From IMG/VR virus record IMGVR_UViG_2541047893_000008: a stretch of DNA of 38,116 bases. One strand, given 5' to 3'. Position 1 is the first letter of the stretch. Each line of letters begins with the position of its first letter. The translations under genes and the position numbers were made by a program. This document shows positions 3,378 to 34,724 of the stretch, in pieces. The notes below the pieces were generated by a model, which searched no databases, was not told the DNA's origin, and was given only the letters and a program-made list of their open reading frames with translations. This DNA is from a virus. Its lineage: Duplodnaviria > Heunggongvirae > Uroviricota > Caudoviricetes.

Positions 3378-3581
3378 ATGGCAATTAAGCATTTTCCTGT
3401 CGTTCGTTTTACCTCCAGAGGGCGTGAATACGAAGTCGACGAACGCCTGATTACCACAATCGACAAACACCGTTCAGAAAAGGATGCACATCACATCTAT
3501 CTCACTGACGGCACTTACTTCTGCGCCACGAATGTGGTGCGGGTGAACCTTATCCGACAGGTACAGGAGTCACGCAGATGA
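3378..3581 (+). CDS. Hypothetical early protein (67 aa)
   Basis: Strong RBS (AAGGAGG) 6-8 nt upstream of the ATG; stop overlaps the next start. Confidence 0.6.
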   Translation: MAIKHFPVVRFTSRGREYEVDERLITTIDKHRSEKDAHHIYLTDGTYFCATNVVRVNLIRQVQESRR

Positions 3582-3823
3582 CCATTCTGGACTATATCGC
3601 CGCCAATCCGGGGTGTAGCGGTGGAGAAATCGCCGCAGCACTGAATACCCCAACCACAGCCATTAATGCGGAGTTACGCCGACTCTGGCGCAGCGGTTCA
3701 GTCATAAGAAAAGAGCGCAAAACAGGCGGTCGCTTTTCTTACCAGATAAACCCGATGCCGTTCGGGTGCGGCAATCCACTTACCAACATGTTTAACCAGC
3801 TACTGAAGGAAGCCAGAGCATGA
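3578..3823 (+). CDS. Small putative winged-helix DNA-binding protein
   Basis: 81 aa, translationally coupled; pattern (DYIAANPGCSGGEIAAALN...ELRRLWRSGSV) is typical of small wHTH regulators. Inference only. Confidence 0.6.
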   Translation: MTILDYIAANPGCSGGEIAAALNTPTTAINAELRRLWRSGSVIRKERKTGGRFSYQINPMPFGCGNPLTNMFNQLLKEARA

Positions 3824-4119
3824 GCGCCATCAACCACCAGGAATTACGCGAACTGGCGACTGACCTGCAACGAATGGCAACGCCTCAAAAATTACTGGCG
3901 TTTCGCGCAATGCTCTCGCCGTCTGCTGTGCTGGCGCTGCTGGATGAGCTGGAGCACGCCAGAACCACACCTCTCGCCATTCGCCTGACGCTCCGTCATG
4001 AAATCGAGGATTTCTGCGCGACGTTGGAGGCGCCAGGCGAACCGGAAACGCCGGAAGCAATACAGCAAGAGCTGCTGCAACGCATTGACAAGGTTTTTGA
4101 TTTTTTTCTGAACCACTAA
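3820..4119 (+). CDS. Hypothetical early protein (99 aa, acidic)
   Basis: ATGA-coupled ORF continuing the early operon. Confidence 0.55.
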   Translation: MSAINHQELRELATDLQRMATPQKLLAFRAMLSPSAVLALLDELEHARTTPLAIRLTLRHEIEDFCATLEAPGEPETPEAIQQELLQRIDKVFDFFLNH

Positions 4120-4441
4120 GAAACCAGAACATGCACACACAAAAAAACCGCTTGCCATGCCGCAATCAGTCAGGTTACATTTCCGCTGCACCTCACAAAA
4201 CGGGTGCCGGGTTTCGCAGCCTGCTGACTACACAAGCGCACAACCGCGCCAGCGTTTTTTTTGTGCGTACTGTATTGCCACGTTTTTTTCGCGTCAGAAT
4301 TATGGCGGGGCGTACGGGGCCGACTTCGGTCGGGCCGGGTTCTTGTGTAGCCGGTACTGCGAACCTCGTACGTCTCGCCACCCACAGTTTCGCAGCTCTG
4401 GATGGTGAGTTTTCACAACTTACTACACAAGGGGCCACACC

Positions 4442-4672
4442 ATGGCAAACCGCAAACCACACCGCGCTATCGCGGAGCGTCGTCACATCCAGACTGAAAT
4501 CAACCGCAGACTTTCCCGCGCATCACGCGTCGCGCAAATCATGCACATCAATATGCTGCATGAGCGCAGCCACGCACTATCAAACATTTATTCCGCCTCT
4601 GTTTTCAGCTATCTGGCGGATGATCTGCACGAGCTTCAACAGCTCATCCAGCAGCAAAACAAACTCCATTAA
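4442..4672 (+). CDS. Hypothetical small basic protein (76 aa)
   Basis: ORF following the repeat-rich non-coding stretch 4120-4441; weak RBS (AAGGGG). Confidence 0.4.
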   Translation: MANRKPHRAIAERRHIQTEINRRLSRASRVAQIMHINMLHERSHALSNIYSASVFSYLADDLHELQQLIQQQNKLH

Positions 4673-4744
4673 CTCCTGTTCCGGGCCTTTCCTGCACCTT
4701 GCGGCGGGAGGCCTTCGCACATCTGTAACAAGAGGATTGCCGCA

Positions 4745-5110
4745 ATGATTCTCGCCAACGACTTTCTTGAATACCTGCTCAACACAGAACGTGATCTTGC
4801 CGCTCGCGTGCGTGATCGTTATGACATGTACCTGAAATCCCTGCCTGTACCGCAGCTCGCTGACGGAAAGATTGTTATTGATGGTCGCTACATGATTGAC
4901 AGCCACGAGGGAAATTACAGGCTTTACCGCATTGAAGGTGGCACCCCGTCCGTTATTGGCATTTACCAGCGCCCATCCTCTGCAATCGTCGATGTGATTG
5001 CCGACAGCATCCGCATCACACATCGCCATGCCGACACAGAAGACACCGTGCTGGAAATTCAGCGGCTGGCTACAGTCTGCCGCGACACCCTGAATGGCAT
5101 GACGAAGTAA
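4745..5110 (+). CDS. Hypothetical early protein (121 aa)
   Basis: RBS AAGAGGA upstream; immediately precedes the replication gene. Confidence 0.6.
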   Translation: MILANDFLEYLLNTERDLAARVRDRYDMYLKSLPVPQLADGKIVIDGRYMIDSHEGNYRLYRIEGGTPSVIGIYQRPSSAIVDVIADSIRITHRHADTEDTVLEIQRLATVCRDTLNGMTK

Positions 5111-5116
5111 ATCACT

Positions 5117-7939
5117 ATGACGGCAGAGTACATCAGGGACTGGCAACAACCGCGCCACGCAGTGGGGCGTGAAGGAACGGGGATCCCCGCTCCTGAATCC
5201 GCGCTTTCCTCCTGGCTGGATGCCTACCGGGTAGAGAACGAGCACCGCCAGGAAATGGCTGATGCGGCGTTCTCCGCAACGCCGCTGGGCAACCTGATTA
5301 ATAAAAGCCTGAACGCACAGGAAAAACAGGACAAAACCATCACACTGGCAGGAGATGCCAGAAAACAGGCACGCGGCGCGGTGGATGAAGCCATGGCCTC
5401 GCTGCGCCTGCTGCCGTCCTATCTGCGCGATCCGCTTATTCGCCACCTCTCCTTCCTGCGCAAAAAACAGGAAGCCGATCGTCAGAAAGGCAAAAAGAGC
5501 TGGCAGGCTGAACGCTACGCGCGCGGAAACCTGCGCAAAATATTCGAACGTCTGGATCGCACCGATCACCGCTGGCTGACACAGGGTTATCGCTCCCTTG
5601 CCGGACGCGAACGCCTGGACGATTTGCTTTACCTGCCGCAGCTCAACAAACACCAGATACAGACACTGGCCACCATGACGGCGGCGATGTTCAGCAGCAC
5701 CTTCGAAAAACTCTGCGATGGCTTTGGCGCGACCGATGGCGAACTGACCATGGATGTAACGCTGAAGGCGTATCAGATGCTGGCCCGCATGGCGTTACAC
5801 CTGCACGCCATGCCTCCACATTATGACGCACTGACAACAGACAAAGACCGGAGGAACGAACCGGACACGGAGCTGCTGCCGGGCGCAATCCTTCGCCTGA
5901 CCTGTGCAGAATGGTGGAAACGCAAACTGTGGCTGTTACGTTGCGAGTGGAGAGAAGAACAACTCCGCGCCGCCTGTCTGGTTTCCAGAAAAACATCGCC
6001 CTATCTGAGCCAGGACGCGTTAAGCGAGTTTCGCGCACAGCGCGAGAAAACACGCGATTTCCTGAAAAGTTTCATGCTGGAAAATGAAGACGGGTTCACG
6101 ATTGATCTCGAGACGGTGTATTACGCGGGAGTAAGTAACCCGGTTCACCGTAAGGCAGAAATGATGGCCACCATGAAGGGGCTGGAACTTCTGGCCGAAG
6201 CCCGTGGCGACAAAGCGGTGTTTCTGACTGTCACCTGCCCGTCAAAATACCACGCCACAACAGAGAACGGTCATCCGAATCCCAAATGGAACGGGGCCAC
6301 CATGCGCGACTCCAGCGATTACCTGGTTAACACGTTTTTTGCGGCGGTCCGCAAAAAACTGAACCGCGACGGTCTTCGCTGGTATGGCATCCGCACGGTG
6401 GAGCCTCACCATGACGGCACCGTGCACTGGCATATGATGGTCTTTGCGCATCCGGAAGAAATCGACAGCATCGTGGCCATCACCCGCGATATTGCCATTC
6501 AGGAAGACCGCCACGAGCTGGGCAATGATATTACTCCGCGCTTTAAGGCGGAGTATGTCGACGGCTCAAAAGGCACACCAACCAGCTATATCGCGACCTA
6601 CATCGGAAAGAACCTGGACAGCCGCGCCGTGGATGGCATCGACCCGAAAACGGGCAAGCCACGCGTTGACCACGAAACCGGAAAATCAATGGCCGAGAGT
6701 GTGGAGCGCGCCATCGGCTGGGCGCGCCTTCATCGGGTCCGCCAGTTCCAGTTCTTTGGCATCCCCTCCCGTCAGGTGTGGCGTGAACTGCGCCGCCTTG
6801 CCAGCCAGATGGCACGCAACCCGGAAGGCCCGCAACGACTGAAAGATGACGCAATGGATGCGGTACTCGCTGCCGCCGATGCCGGGTGTTTTGCCACCTA
6901 CATTGAAAAACAGGGCGGCGTACTTGTTCCACGCAAAGACTACCTGATTCGCACCGCCTACGACCTCGCAGATGAGCTGAATGATTACGGCGAACAGAGC
7001 GTACAGATTTACGGGATCTGGTCACCACTCATCGGGGAATCCTCCCGTGTGTGCACGCATCCGGATAACTGGAAACTGGTAAGACGTAAACCGGAAACGG
7101 AAGACAGCGCCCGCGAAAATGGTTTTGACCTTCAGGGCGGCCCTGCCGCCCCTTGGACTCGTGGCAATAACTGTCCCCGTGTACAGGAAACGGACAACAA
7201 CGGGACAGAACAGCCGGAAGAACGGCCAGCACCGTGGCCGCAGCTCCCTGACGGCGTTGAAGTGAACGAATGGATGCGCTCACTGAAACGACACGAACGC
7301 CGGGCGCTGATGCGTTCGCTTCGTGACAAACAGGCAAAAAACAGCAGCGATGAAATGCAGAGCTGGACACAGAGCCGCAAACAGCAGCGGCCTTTGCCTG
7401 ATAACCACGAATTACTCGCTAAAGAATGGCGGGAGTCTGCTGAATCTCTCGGCCTGCATATCGGTGAACAACAGATGCAGCACCTGTTACGGGGCGGCAG
7501 TCTGTACGTTGACGGCAGCATCATTGCACCGCAGGGATTTGAAATTGTACGCAAACCGGATACCCGCCCGGACAGCCGAATCACGCAGCTCTGGCAGCGC
7601 CTGAGCCGTAATCACGGCGTAAGCAGCACGGAGATCCGCCATAACCCGGTCTCCAGCTATCTGGCACAGCTCGGGGCATCAGACCCCGAAGCCGCCGCAC
7701 GCCTGGCATCCACACTTCAGCAGGTCCAGAACACCATGAAAACACCCGTTACCGTGCTTTCTGACATGCTGCGCGCCATTCGTGACGCAGAGCACGCACA
7801 GAGAATCAGAGAAACCACTGAACGCGCCCGCCGCAAAGCAAACCTGCTGAGGACTGGCCTGACCAGTGGAAACAAAAAACAGACAGAAACGGGATTCACA
7901 AATCCCGTAAATGAGCAAAAAACGCGCCGCGATATATGA
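5117..7939 (+). CDS. A: Rolling-circle replication initiation endonuclease (P2 gpA family)
   Basis: 940-aa ORF with HUH motif (HWHMMVF) and two-tyrosine motif (TSYIATYIGKN); conserved blocks (VFLTVTCPSKYH, GIRTVEPHHDGT) match P2 A. About 180 aa longer than P2 A at the C-terminus. Confidence 0.9.
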   Translation: MTAEYIRDWQQPRHAVGREGTGIPAPESALSSWLDAYRVENEHRQEMADAAFSATPLGNLINKSLNAQEKQDKTITLAGDARKQARGAVDEAMASLRLLPSYLRDPLIRHLSFLRKKQEADRQKGKKSWQAERYARGNLRKIFERLDRTDHRWLTQGYRSLAGRERLDDLLYLPQLNKHQIQTLATMTAAMFSSTFEKLCDGFGATDGELTMDVTLKAYQMLARMALHLHAMPPHYDALTTDKDRRNEPDTELLPGAILRLTCAEWWKRKLWLLRCEWREEQLRAACLVSRKTSPYLSQDALSEFRAQREKTRDFLKSFMLENEDGFTIDLETVYYAGVSNPVHRKAEMMATMKGLELLAEARGDKAVFLTVTCPSKYHATTENGHPNPKWNGATMRDSSDYLVNTFFAAVRKKLNRDGLRWYGIRTVEPHHDGTVHWHMMVFAHPEEIDSIVAITRDIAIQEDRHELGNDITPRFKAEYVDGSKGTPTSYIATYIGKNLDSRAVDGIDPKTGKPRVDHETGKSMAESVERAIGWARLHRVRQFQFFGIPSRQVWRELRRLASQMARNPEGPQRLKDDAMDAVLAAADAGCFATYIEKQGGVLVPRKDYLIRTAYDLADELNDYGEQSVQIYGIWSPLIGESSRVCTHPDNWKLVRRKPETEDSARENGFDLQGGPAAPWTRGNNCPRVQETDNNGTEQPEERPAPWPQLPDGVEVNEWMRSLKRHERRALMRSLRDKQAKNSSDEMQSWTQSRKQQRPLPDNHELLAKEWRESAESLGLHIGEQQMQHLLRGGSLYVDGSIIAPQGFEIVRKPDTRPDSRITQLWQRLSRNHGVSSTEIRHNPVSSYLAQLGASDPEAAARLASTLQQVQNTMKTPVTVLSDMLRAIRDAEHAQRIRETTERARRKANLLRTGLTSGNKKQTETGFTNPVNEQKTRRDI

Positions 7940-8015: not shown

Positions 8016-8975
8016 ATGAAAATTTGTATCGACGACGGCTCCACCAACATCAAGCTGGCATGGACTGAGAATGGCGAACGCCGCAACGCCATCAGCCCGA
8101 ACAGCTTCAAGTCGGAATGGTCTGCGCCGTTCGGTGGCATGCAGCCCGCGAACTACATGCTTGATGGCGTGCGCTATGGTTTTGATCCGGTCAGCGATCG
8201 CTTTGTCCAGACGACCGACACGCAATACCAGTACAGCGATGTGAATGTAATCGCCATTCATCACGCGCTGGTCAAATCAGGCATCACGCCACAAGAGGTG
8301 GATGTGGTTGTCACCCTGCCACTGAGCGAGTATTTCGAGACAAACGCACAGCCGGACATGGCCAACATCAACCGCAAAAAAGCGAACGTTATGCGCTCGG
8401 TGGAGTACCAGAACGGCGAAGCATTCACTATCCGTAACGTGCGGGTTATGCCTGAATCCATTCCGGCTGGCTTTAAAGCACTGGCTGACATGAGTCCGTT
8501 TGAATCCCTGCTGATTGTGGATTTAGGCGGAACCACGCTGGATGTGGCAAAGGTTCAAGGGCAACTGGCAGGTATCAGCCAGGTGTTTTGCGATCCACAC
8601 GTAGGCGTTTCCCTGATGGCCGATGCCGTACTGTCGGTGATGGCCACTAACGGTATGCGCACCAGTCACCACATCGCCAATACCATTATCGAACATCGCC
8701 ATGATGAAGCCTGGCTGCGCCAGCACATCCACAATGACGCGCATTACGCCAGCCTGATGGCGGTTATTCGTGAAAAGGAAGAAACACTGAAACAACGCGT
8801 GATCCGCGCGCTGGCGGTTTTTTCGGGTTACGGGCGGGTGATGGTTGTCGGTGGAGGGGCGGAGATTGTGGCACCCGCTATCCGCGAAGTCTGCGGAGTT
8901 AATGCGACTTTCATCGCGGACGGGGTGCCACAGTTTGCTCTGGTTAATGGGCTGTACGCAATGGACAAGGAGTAA
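8016..8975 (+). CDS. parM: ParM/StbA-like actin-fold partition ATPase
   Basis: 319-aa ORF with actin-fold signatures: phosphate-1 (IDDGSTNIKL), phosphate-2 (IVDLGGTTLDV), adenosine motif (VVGGGAEIV). N-terminus resembles plasmid R1 ParM from memory (MLVFIDDGSTNIKLQW...). RBS AAGGA. Confidence 0.88.
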   Translation: MKICIDDGSTNIKLAWTENGERRNAISPNSFKSEWSAPFGGMQPANYMLDGVRYGFDPVSDRFVQTTDTQYQYSDVNVIAIHHALVKSGITPQEVDVVVTLPLSEYFETNAQPDMANINRKKANVMRSVEYQNGEAFTIRNVRVMPESIPAGFKALADMSPFESLLIVDLGGTTLDVAKVQGQLAGISQVFCDPHVGVSLMADAVLSVMATNGMRTSHHIANTIIEHRHDEAWLRQHIHNDAHYASLMAVIREKEETLKQRVIRALAVFSGYGRVMVVGGGAEIVAPAIREVCGVNATFIADGVPQFALVNGLYAMDKE

Positions 8976-8979
8976 ACCA

Positions 8980-9294
8980 ATGACGACACCAACCAGACGG
9001 ATAAGTTTCTATCTGAAGCCCGCCGCCGTCAAGAGTGAACAGGAGGCGTGCAATTACCTCGATAGCCTGCCAGCCTCCGAACGCAGCCGCGCGCAACGCG
9101 CGGCCTTTCTGGCTGGGCTAGCGCTCATAAAGCGCAACCCAGCATTTGCCTACTGGATGGCCGAATGGCCAGAGGACAACCTCCCCTTCAATACCGTTAG
9201 CATCAAGGAAACATACCAGGATAATCAGCCTAGCGGAGTTGAATGCAATTTTTATAAAATTGCAAAGAATATTCAGACCTTATTCCCAGAATAA
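8980..9294 (+). CDS. parR: ParR/StbB-like small DNA-binding partner (putative ribbon-helix-helix)
   Basis: Small ORF immediately downstream of parM (start 5 nt after the parM stop, RBS AAGGAG). N-terminus RRISFYLKP followed by two helices (EQEACNYLDSL; SERSRAQRAAFLAGLAL) fits the RHH pattern of type II partition adaptors. Assignment is inference from context and pattern. Confidence 0.65.
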   Translation: MTTPTRRISFYLKPAAVKSEQEACNYLDSLPASERSRAQRAAFLAGLALIKRNPAFAYWMAEWPEDNLPFNTVSIKETYQDNQPSGVECNFYKIAKNIQTLFPE

Positions 9295-33614: not shown

Positions 33615-34724
33615 ATGACCGACACCACCATGCAATTGCTCAGTCAGGGCACAGACCCCGTGAAAATGCCGGATTTTGATATTCTCGCGGAGGGTAAAAC
33701 GCTGTCAGGCGTGGCAGAGCGCCTGATGAGCCTGTCACTGACCGACAACCGGGGATTTGAGGCGGACCAGCTCACCATCATGCTGGATGATGCAGATGGT
33801 CAGTTGCAGCTACCGCCACGGGGCGCGCACCTGACGGTTCTCATTGGCTGGAAAGGAGAACCGCTGACAGAAAAAGGCACTTACATTGTTGATGAAATCG
33901 CTCACGAAGGACCGCCGGACAGGCTGACTGTTTCAGCCAGAAGCGCAGATTTTCGGGATGAATTTAACGTTAAACGTGAGGTGTCCTGGCATGATGTGAC
34001 CATTGAGCGTGTGGTATCCGCCATCGCTCATCGGTATGGTCTGAAACCGCAAATCAGCGAAATGCTGATGGATATCGAAATCGACCACGCCGACCAGACC
34101 GAAGAAAGCGACATGTCCTTCCTTACGCGCATGGCGGAAATGCTGGGCGCAATCACCACGGTAAAAAGCGGTAATCTGTTATTCATTATGCCAGGCGGTG
34201 GCGTGAACGCACAGGGCCAGCCGTTGCCATCGTTCGCCATCACGCGCAGCAGTGGCGATCGCCATCAGTTCCGCATTGCTGACCGCGAGGCGTATACGGG
34301 GGTACGCGCTTACTGGCTTGATCTTAATTACGGGAAAAAGAAAAAAGTCAGCGTGAAACGCCGCAAACCGCCAAAACCCAAAAAGGAGAAAAGCAGCAGC
34401 CGTGAAGGTGATTATATGGAAGGCGCGGAAGGCAATGTGTTTGTGTTACGCAAGACTTATCAGAACGAGCAGGCAGCAAGACGCGCAGCGGCGGCAAAGT
34501 GGCAGCAGCTACAACGCGAAGCCGCATCATTCTCCATCACGCTGGCACGTGGTCGTGCAGAACTCTACCCCGAAATGCATGGCACGGTAACAGGATTTAA
34601 AAGCGAGATTGATAATCAGGACTGGATTATTGCAAAAGCCGAGCACACCATCGATAACAGCGGCTTTACCACGCAGCTTGAGCTTGAGGCAAAAATCCCG
34701 GAATGGATAGCAGAAACAGAGTGA
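33615..34724 (+). CDS. D: Tail protein D (late gene D, gpD family)
   Basis: Start at internal ATG (MTDTTMQLL...) preceded by GGGAGGG; blocks (SLTDNRGFEAD, TIMLDDADG, TYIVDEIAHEGPPD, SWHD, FTTQLELE) match P2 D. On the opposite strand to FI-U. Confidence 0.88.
   Translation: MTDTTMQLLSQGTDPVKMPDFDILAEGKTLSGVAERLMSLSLTDNRGFEADQLTIMLDDADGQLQLPPRGAHLTVLIGWKGEPLTEKGTYIVDEIAHEGPPDRLTVSARSADFRDEFNVKREVSWHDVTIERVVSAIAHRYGLKPQISEMLMDIEIDHADQTEESDMSFLTRMAEMLGAITTVKSGNLLFIMPGGGVNAQGQPLPSFAITRSSGDRHQFRIADREAYTGVRAYWLDLNYGKKKKVSVKRRKPPKPKKEKSSSREGDYMEGAEGNVFVLRKTYQNEQAARRAAAAKWQQLQREAASFSITLARGRAELYPEMHGTVTGFKSEIDNQDWIIAKAEHTIDNSGFTTQLELEAKIPEWIAETE

Follow-up and report, generated by a model that had tools for sequence, protein, structure and literature searches.

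We observed that the stretch from position 4120 to position 4441 of the DNA analysed here, a phage sequence of 38,116 nt to which we refer as the window, holds an IsrK/SeqA-like RNA and a C4/CI-type antisense RNA, together with repeated target boxes. Very probably, these elements form an RNA-based anti-immunity cassette of the P1 immI/P4 immunity type, located in a P2-like phage, that silences an anti-repressor gene. This reading stands on sequence features, RNA family membership, structural covariation, a three-way co-variation of boxes and synteny with P4, all of which were observed directly. The cassette is of an already known regulatory kind (P1 immI, P4 immunity, Gifsy-1 IsrK). No new mechanism is at issue here, since the "IsrK-C4 immunity system" has been described for P4, P1, P7, N15 and lambdoid prophages (PMC3632133, PMC4825925) and its Gifsy-1 copy was dissected by Hershko-Shalev et al. 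(PMC4825925). A literature search found no published description of the cassette in P88-type phages. Specific to the present instance are the helper-type P2-like host, the epsilon-like cargo, the location directly upstream of gene A, and a same-frame ORF that ends on the start of orf121.

On sequence similarity, the window is assigned to Xuanwuvirus, in the phage P88 group of P2-like Peduoviridae. Its segment from 3500 to 5200 is 99.8% identical to Xuanwuvirus P88_4B11 and ~95% identical to phage P88. Genes for an integrase, a C-type repressor and a Cox protein are present, and the cassette lies within the early operon. The repressor shares 42% identity with its C-type counterpart in the "Peduovirus P2" record NC_070905; the part of that record that was searched, from the C repressor as far as the beginning of the replication gene, gave no match to isrK or C4. 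Downstream of the cassette, and on the plus strand as are all features described below, we located a 76-aa ORF (4442-4672), orf121 (4745-5110) and a 940-aa replication gene A of the P2 gpA type (5117-7939; Phage_GPA, 437.6 bits). A scan for LexA boxes (CTGT-N8-ACAG, with 1 mismatch at most) returned 14 against 11.2 expected, none of them near the cassette, and thus gave no support to direct SOS control.

The initial annotation had reported reiterated motifs, a GC hairpin and two T-runs in this stretch, and had proposed that it was a small RNA, a regulatory element or an origin-like element. All of these motifs could be located, some with slightly corrected coordinates. The 9-mer CTACACAAG occurs twice in direct orientation, at 4228-4236 and at 4423-4431 (not ~4422), and once inverted at 4342-4350. 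These 3 matches across the 38-kb window compare with an expectation of 0.23, and a count of 3 was not attained in any of 100 shuffles. The motif GTTTCGCAGC was found at 4211-4220 and 4387-4396, in agreement with the earlier placement at ~4211 and ~4387 (2 copies in the whole window versus 0.12 expected), and both motifs are confined to the cassette stretch within the 38 kb. The hairpin with a UUCG-type loop is real, with its stem at 4320-4324/4329-4333 and its loop (TTCG in the DNA) at 4325-4328; the repeat scan showed it to be surrounded by a 17-bp inverted repeat, 4303-4319/4364-4380. The same scan revealed an inverted box, CTGCGAA at 4357-4363, that pairs with the TTCGCAG of both GTTTCGCAGC copies. 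The T-runs were placed at 4255-4262 (8 T) and 4283-4289 (7 T). The CTGCGAA box had been overlooked in the initial annotation, as had the credible 76-aa ORF (4442-4672) and, at 4152-4181, a site resembling a promoter.

A covariance-model search against known RNA families, which the initial annotation had suggested, returned exactly two Rfam matches at the gathering threshold over the whole window, isrK and C4, both of them inside the cassette stretch. The anatomy of these two families accounts for nearly all of the motifs described above, which are antisense loops and their targets, and the small-RNA or regulatory part of the earlier proposal was borne out in this way. The C4/CI-type antisense RNA is at 4298-4385, where model RF01695, whose gathering score is 45, matched over its full length (positions 1-87 of 87) with 83.2 bits (E 4.4e-15). 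As folded, it consists of a closing stem (4303-4319/4364-4380), the UUCG hairpin (4320-4333), and a third-helix hairpin (4334-4338/4351-4355) whose loop bears box b', CTTGTGTAG, at 4342-4350; box a', CTGCGAA at 4357-4363, is in a single-stranded junction. The minimum-energy fold is the family consensus (-47.7 kcal/mol, z -4.46). When the C4 helices were compared over 19 sequences, 99.8% of the cells in 27 pairs were paired, and 14 of the pairs had compensatory changes; none of 500 shuffles gave so high a value, and slid partners were only 32-46% paired. The AAUUA leader and the ACC that follows the closing stem are invariant in C4. By homology, and in keeping with these two invariant features, we would expect this RNA to be released from a longer precursor through RNase P processing and to act in trans as a repressor.

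The IsrK/SeqA-like small RNA is at 4188-4262 (RF01394; 57.5 bits, gathering score 50), and here also the model was covered over its full length, positions 1-77 of 77. Its predicted elements are hairpin 1 (4188-4207); hairpin 2 (4208-4223), with box a1 in the loop (core TTCGCAG, 4213-4219); box b1 (4228-4236), which is single-stranded in the fold; and a weak terminator hairpin (4242-4256, core 4245-4247/4252-4254) followed by the U-run at 4255-4262. The terminator stem has three G-C pairs only, with GCGT where relatives show GCGG, and the IsrK fold as a whole was no better than that of shuffles (z -0.77). The c4-a1b1 model RF03163 scored below its threshold (20.9 versus 46.7 bits, at 4175-4227). 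The a1 and b1 boxes exist, and the segment that contains them fits the isrK model better than the c4-a1b1 model. An isrK element was found directly upstream of C4 in all 13 of the phage loci that we fetched, and likewise in P4 and Gifsy-1.

A sigma-70-type promoter candidate precedes the IsrK match, with a -35 hexamer TTGCCA (4152-4157), an 18-nt spacer and a -10 hexamer TACATT (4176-4181). It matches at 9 of 12 positions, its predicted start at ~4188 is the 5' end of the IsrK match, and an A-tract at 4141-4147 occupies the position of an UP element. Unrelated loci have TTGATT-N17-TACACT, TTGACG-N18-TAAAGT and TTGACA-N18-TATATT at the same distance (6 nt from the -10 hexamer to the IsrK 5' end), so that the hexamers vary in sequence yet keep their position relative to IsrK. 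On this positional evidence, 4152-4181 is probably the promoter of the cassette. The spacer between IsrK and C4 (4263-4297), which includes the second T-run, folds weakly (-3.8 kcal/mol, z +0.47) and exceeds the lambdoid versions by 11 nt, a lineage-specific expansion. The terminator tail seems to have been duplicated in part here, as judged from the resemblance of GCCAGCGTTTTTT at 4248-4260 to GCCACGTTTTTTT at 4277-4289. We rejected the second T-run as a terminator, given the absence of a stable hairpin. A second promoter at 4275-4303, which matches the consensus, appeared doubtful: its -35 hexamer is not kept in the P88 and lambdoid versions, and its start would land within the C4 stem. There is also an inverted repeat, 4135-4155/4248-4268, which is 86% complementary and kept only in the Xuanwuvirus group. 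It may act as an anti-terminator on transcripts that come from the early promoter, but its partner would be the 3' half of the terminator, which departs from the classical geometry; the A-tract within 4135-4155 may simply be an UP element.

The second copies of the two motifs are located between C4 and the 76-aa ORF. Box a2, the second GTTTCGCAGC copy (4387-4396, core TTCGCAG 4389-4395), is at the fixed position +3 after C4, and its core is complementary to a'. Box b2, which is complementary to b', is the CTACACAAG copy at 4423-4431 and overlaps a Shine-Dalgarno sequence, AAGGGG at 4429-4434, that stands 7 nt before the ATG at 4442; in all of the loci compared, b2 abuts a GAGG/GGAGG sequence 7-10 nt before the ATG. 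The duplexes predicted for b' had energies of -15.6 kcal/mol with b1 and -17.7 kcal/mol with b2, the latter extending into the Shine-Dalgarno sequence, and those for a' had -15.7 kcal/mol with a1 and -11.3 kcal/mol with a2. Between a2 and b2 there is a conserved leader element, TGGATGGTGAG followed by TTTT (4399-4413), of which 4403-4409 could base-pair with 4374-4380 on the 3' side of the closing stem of C4. The resulting helix has a2 in its loop, a consensus with compensatory changes at 4 pairs, and a predicted energy of -16.5 kcal/mol (z -2.62); possibly, it represents an alternative, terminator-like conformation.

We compared these boxes by extracting the loops from 25 loci and searching the flanks for the longest perfect complement. 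The 25 loci yielded 19 distinct (b', a') combinations, in which loops and targets change together. Within a locus, the complement of b' averaged 7.9 nt at b1 and 8.7 nt at b2, versus 4.5 and 4.4 nt between loci; for a', the averages were 7.2 nt at both a1 and a2 within a locus, and 4.7 and 4.2 nt between loci. The positions of the targets are fixed relative to C4, at -70, -85, +3 and +37, throughout the 25 loci. The window, P88 and Shae_phiSM, which are 87-95% identical to each other in this region, have three different box sets, and such differences among near-identical phages are the pattern that one would expect for heteroimmunity specificity.

These comparisons also bear on the origin-like element of the initial annotation, that is, on a reading of the repeats as protein-binding iterons or operators of a replication origin or of a control region for early proteins. 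Motifs are indeed reiterated near replication gene A. However, each motif has two direct copies only, 195 nt apart for one and 176 nt for the other, where several regular repeats in the same orientation would be expected; the third CTACACAAG copy is inverted, and is in the hairpin loop of a structured RNA; and among loci the copies change together so as to stay complementary rather than identical in the same orientation. In addition, the two RNA family matches cover the whole stretch, and the cassette adjoins unrelated replication systems in other elements (lambda O-type, primase types and P4 alpha). Nothing iteron-like was left once the repeats were explained by RNA-RNA pairing, and we consider it almost certain that they are not binding sites of this kind.

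The gene whose ribosome-binding site overlaps b2 is the 76-aa ORF at 4442-4672. Its match to the epsilon-like "derepression" (anti-repressor) family PF25738 scored 32.5 bits, above the cut-off of 27, and a comparison with P4 epsilon gave 29% identity (E 4e-9); a contig search for epsilon relatives gave 6 loci, of which 3 were useful. Over 13 loci of the Xuanwuvirus type, the variable columns in this ORF were distributed as 21/21/44 over codon positions 1/2/3, the periodicity of a coding sequence. By homology, it is a putative anti-repressor gene and the predicted target of regulation by the cassette.

The only long ORF in the region, 4131-4748 (205 aa), has been annotated as a protein gene in several ways. 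The RefSeq record of P88_4B11 names it "transcriptional regulator" gp51 and PGAP calls it "ash family protein"; depending on the genome, PGAP labels this same place "ash family protein" or "derepression protein". If the ORF encoded a real protein, the repeats would be incidental. Residues 16-109 match the Pfam family Phage_ASH (PF10554) at 29.7 bits, above the cut-off of 26, in a segment that does not overlap epsilon; these residues correspond to the DNA of IsrK, C4 and the leader, and PF10554 likewise spans the cassette in lambdoid Rha-fusion CDSs and in a historical P4 "cI AA 1-137" CDS. The frame is stop-free in 11 of the 13 Xuanwuvirus-type loci and is in frame with the Rha gene in lambdoid phages, an in-frame ATG is retained in P88 though the DNA upstream differs, and its stop codon shares the sequence ATGA with the start codon of orf121. 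Against these points, we observed no codon periodicity in the frame over 4131-4441, where the variable columns of the 13 loci fell as 34/36/37, and periodicity was likewise absent from the lambdoid set. Over 4442-4672, position 2 of this frame is the most variable, because the periodicity there follows the epsilon frame. Moreover, the frame is broken in two loci, L017 and L028, and there are stops in all three frames in L011 and L012; the changes in the boxes keep RNA complementarity and not amino acids; an open alternative frame over epsilon was obtained in 6-29% of synonymous resamplings; and the alternation of PGAP between two names at one place does not favour a distinct protein. The ORF at 4131-4748 is therefore not a conventional protein gene, as the initial annotation had suspected from its implausible composition, and that a functional 205-aa protein is made from it seems very improbable. 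The initial annotation had also raised the matter of an ORF conserved in relatives as evidence for translation across the region. A stop-free frame is in fact kept in most relatives and has a Pfam family of its own, but it has no codon periodicity, and the RNA reading is therefore not refuted. Some translation across the cassette may occur, in view of the stop-free frame in 11 of 13 close relatives.

Such translation would take a particular form if there were a leader ORF like orf45 of Gifsy-1, starting at the conserved AUG of AAUUAUGG (4302, inside C4). The frame from 4302 is open for 148 codons and closes at 4745-4748 with a TGA overlapping the start codon of orf121. It would be the passage of ribosomes, not the peptide itself, that tied expression of orf121 and gene A to the RNA switch, with IsrK as an activator. 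Orf45 of Gifsy-1 uses the same frame and the same AUG and ends as ATGA on anrP, its translation and coupling have been demonstrated experimentally (PMC4825925), and the present frame is open to the ATGA on orf121 in 11 of 13 loci, across two divergent alleles of the gap and orf121. However, there is no Shine-Dalgarno sequence before 4302, the open frame is just mildly improbable and was spotted after the fact, and in L017 and L028 the frame stops early, at +199. Also, the epsilon-like ORF has a Shine-Dalgarno sequence of its own, placed as in all other loci. On balance we regard a translated leader ORF as unlikely, though less so than a 205-aa protein.

The closest parallel in gene order is satellite phage P4. 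There, we found an isrK-type match at 8615-8692 (the seqA region) and a C4-type match at 8420-8507 (the CI RNA), upstream of epsilon and alpha. The P4 order is seqA, CI, seqC, epsilon ... alpha, with epsilon, orf151, orf106 and alpha following the C4-type match in the left operon; that of the window is IsrK, C4, epsilon-like gene, orf121, A. In both, two copies of the target flank the antisense RNA, and the cassette is upstream of the replication gene. There are also several differences. P4 is a satellite, whereas the cassette of the window resides in a complete P2-like phage that brings along a C repressor and a Cox protein itself; the gap between IsrK and C4 is 35 nt in the window versus ~107 nt in P4, and the distance from C4 to the epsilon ATG is 56 nt versus ~245 nt; the replication gene is of the P2 A type in the window and alpha in P4; and we found no similarity between orf121 and P4 orf151 (E 0.16). 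In P4, E (epsilon) is an anti-repressor that binds the P2 C repressor (PMC2995052), and control has been described as transcription termination (PMC4825925), whereas in the window b2 covers a ribosome site.

With regard to the arrangement of the boxes, the window resembles immI of P1 and P7. In both, C4 has loops a' and b', a1 and b1 are upstream, and a2 and b2 are at the ribosome site of the downstream gene. Citron and Schuster reportedly described, in 1990, the c4 antisense RNA of P1 and P7 with its a'/b' loops and target boxes. The C4 RNA of these phages controls an anti-repressor, and its boxes define heteroimmunity (Rfam RF01695, RF03163; PMC12197685). As compared with published descriptions of P1, the regulated protein is epsilon-like (PF25738) in the window and Icd/Ant in P1/P7; also, the a1/b1 segment of the window matches isrK and not the c4-a1b1 model.

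The Gifsy-1 locus, where isrK scored 79.3 bits and C4 69 bits upstream of anrP, corresponds to the window in its a and b boxes and in the conserved AUG at the 5' end of C4, and its promoter, terminator and downstream anti-repressor have predicted counterparts there. In that prophage, a short IsrK and a read-through mRNA have been shown experimentally; the published model is one of activation by IsrK, and a repressor role for C4 was raised only in discussion (PMC4825925). The two loci differ in that the Gifsy-1 cassette is in the late region beside antQ, and in that its orf45 (STnc1160) ends on the start codon of anrP, whereas the corresponding frame of the window bypasses the start of the epsilon-like gene and ends on orf121. 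In lambdoid and Stx phages (mEp460, ST64B, Stx2a_WGPS2), the IsrK-C4 tandem shares 70-78% identity with its counterpart in the window and has the same box geometry. It sits between cII and the replication genes, its cargo is a Rha-domain protein, and the cassette frame is in frame with Rha, giving one long "Ash domain" CDS.

From these parallels we infer transcription, processing, translational repression and the epsilon-like target, with the mechanistic steps taken from the homologous systems. The promoter at 4152-4181 would fire at ~4188, and many of the transcripts would end at the weak terminator (U-run 4255-4262), yielding an IsrK/SeqA-like RNA of ~75 nt that shows boxes a1 and b1. The C4/CI RNA (4298-4385) would be carried by read-through transcripts and by those from the upstream early promoter, from which it would be cut by RNase P and trimmed to a stable antisense RNA of ~80 nt, by homology with C4 of P1/P7 and CI of P4. 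Pairing of its b' (4342-4350) with b2 (4423-4431), and of its a' (4357-4363) with a2 (4389-4395), would hide the ribosome-binding site of the epsilon-like gene. With this site covered, an anti-repressor of the P2 C-type repressor would remain unmade in the lysogen and also, we propose, upon superinfection. Loss of epsilon-like translation could in turn reduce transcription into orf121 and gene A through polarity; possibly, on the precedents of P1 and P4 only, the cassette is linked to these two genes by polarity or by translational coupling. The a1 and b1 boxes in IsrK could provide a second site for the C4 loops, either for C4-dependent termination, as in the P4 model, or as a decoy or activator, as in the Gifsy-1 model. 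Control may thus act by translation (P1 model), by termination (P4 model) or by IsrK activation (Gifsy-1 model). The sequences of the boxes, which differ between near-identical phages, would set the specificity of immunity.

A distant BLAST search yielded 13 phage loci, including P88, Shae_phiSM, Stx and other lambdoid phages, mEp460, ST64B, NAR688 and GER2, and the IsrK-C4 tandem was present in every one. In these 13 loci and in Gifsy-1, each tandem precedes a gene of the anti-repressor type, usually just before replication genes. DNA resembling 4120-5110 of the window, a segment made up of the cassette, the epsilon-like gene and orf121, was detected in 1279 of 5426 complete E. coli genomes, with at least 80% coverage in 874.

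A more elaborate arrangement can be envisaged, and we think it rather unlikely, about as much so as the leader ORF itself: a bifunctional RNA/ORF switch in which ribosome traffic from the AUG at 4302, promoted by IsrK, gates the replication operon, and in which the a and b boxes mediate cross-talk between helper and satellite. If this were true, orf121 and A would be gated, and possibly the ParM partition genes with them; through their hypervariable a/b specificities, helper-type prophages and P4-like satellites would defend themselves against, or exploit, one another; and the widely used "Ash" domain would amount to an RNA cassette read as protein.

On the preferred reading, that of an RNA cassette silencing an anti-repressor gene, a helper-type P2-like phage shares an RNA immunity and epsilon module with satellite P4, placed right before the replication gene. 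Phages with 87-99% identity elsewhere have different boxes, a pattern consistent with selection for heteroimmunity. The cassette is routinely annotated as protein, be it "transcriptional regulator", "ash family protein" or Rha/Ash fusions, and PF10554 has served as a marker for P4 epsilon. Recognition of the RNA would fix many annotations and direct experiments toward the control of induction in these prophages. The main value of the finding is in this correction of annotation, and in a clean, testable example of hypervariable specificity in RNA-based immunity.

The matches to Pfam family PF10554 (Phage_ASH, 'Ash domain') occupy nucleotides 4176-4457 of the window, 1494-1785 of comparison locus L008 and 8329-8521 (- strand) of comparison locus L015. 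By their positions, the extent of this family is exactly that of the IsrK-spacer-C4-leader DNA, and the epsilon-like gene (PF25738) is not what it covers; we looked for coding periodicity in the PF10554-matched frame and observed none. For these two reasons, the 'Ash domain' looks like a translated RNA cassette. The domain has been given as one of unknown function in the Stx-phage literature (PMC8951638), and it serves as an epsilon marker in P4-like satellites (PMC8628076).

An open frame begins within the C4 antisense RNA, at a conserved AUG in AAUUAUGG at its 5' end, which is the start codon of orf45 in the Salmonella prophage Gifsy-1 (orf45 frame at 34076-34214, - strand, of locus L030). 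In Gifsy-1 the orf45 stop overlaps the ATG of anrP, whereas in the window (4302-4748) the frame stays open for 148 codons, crosses the epsilon-like gene out of frame and ends with a TGA that overlaps the ATG of orf121 (ATGA). An open frame ending in this way on orf121 is kept in 11 of the 13 related loci.

To the 3' side of C4, a conserved element at 4403-4409 can pair with the C4 closing stem along its 3' strand (4374-4380); box a2, a leader target of C4, would then occupy the loop, and TTTT follows at 4410-4413. Other loci show this element co-varying with its partner strand, one such pair being GGTGGTAGC with GCTACCACC, and a terminator-like alternative structure is predicted. In the L022 locus of E. 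coli 99-3165 (879-966 and leader), the loop of the exposed C4 box b' is CTGCGTTTG and its b2 partner is CACACGTAGA; the a'/a2 match is perfect, and the b'-b2 pairing requires one G-U pair and one mismatch. Possibly, this box set reflects recombinant or drifting specificity.

The stem of the IsrK terminator (4243-4262) is weaker in the window, which carries GCGT in place of the GCGG of P88, Shae_phiSM and others, and read-through into C4 is therefore predicted to be higher than in the relatives. The 3' half of this terminator, with its U-run, also forms one arm (4248-4268) of a 21-nt inverted repeat, 86% complementary, whose other arm (4135-4155) is rich in A and lies ahead of the cassette promoter. 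The repeat, conserved only within the Xuanwuvirus group, could be an UP element or could provide long-range pairing specific to early-promoter transcripts.

A Xuanwuvirus-type cassette was also seen in L018 (NZ_JBQPOM010000071.1), a contig labelled Vagococcus sp., a Gram-positive genus; its epsilon-like protein is 88% identical to that of the window (tblastn), and the assembly is likely contaminated or mislabelled. In phage GER2 (L012), a match to sRNA-Xcc1 (RF02221, 75.7 bits) lies at 2102-2185, about 500 nt downstream of the IsrK-C4 cassette.

Directly after replication gene A, the window carries a ParM-type plasmid segregation gene (8016-8975; StbA_N, 272 bits; ParM C-terminal domain, 231 bits), followed by a gene (8845-9294) to which the RefSeq entry for P88_4B11, a near-identical phage, assigns a partition protein. 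Such genes are unusual in an integrating P2-like phage, and they recall the phage-plasmid lifestyle of P4.
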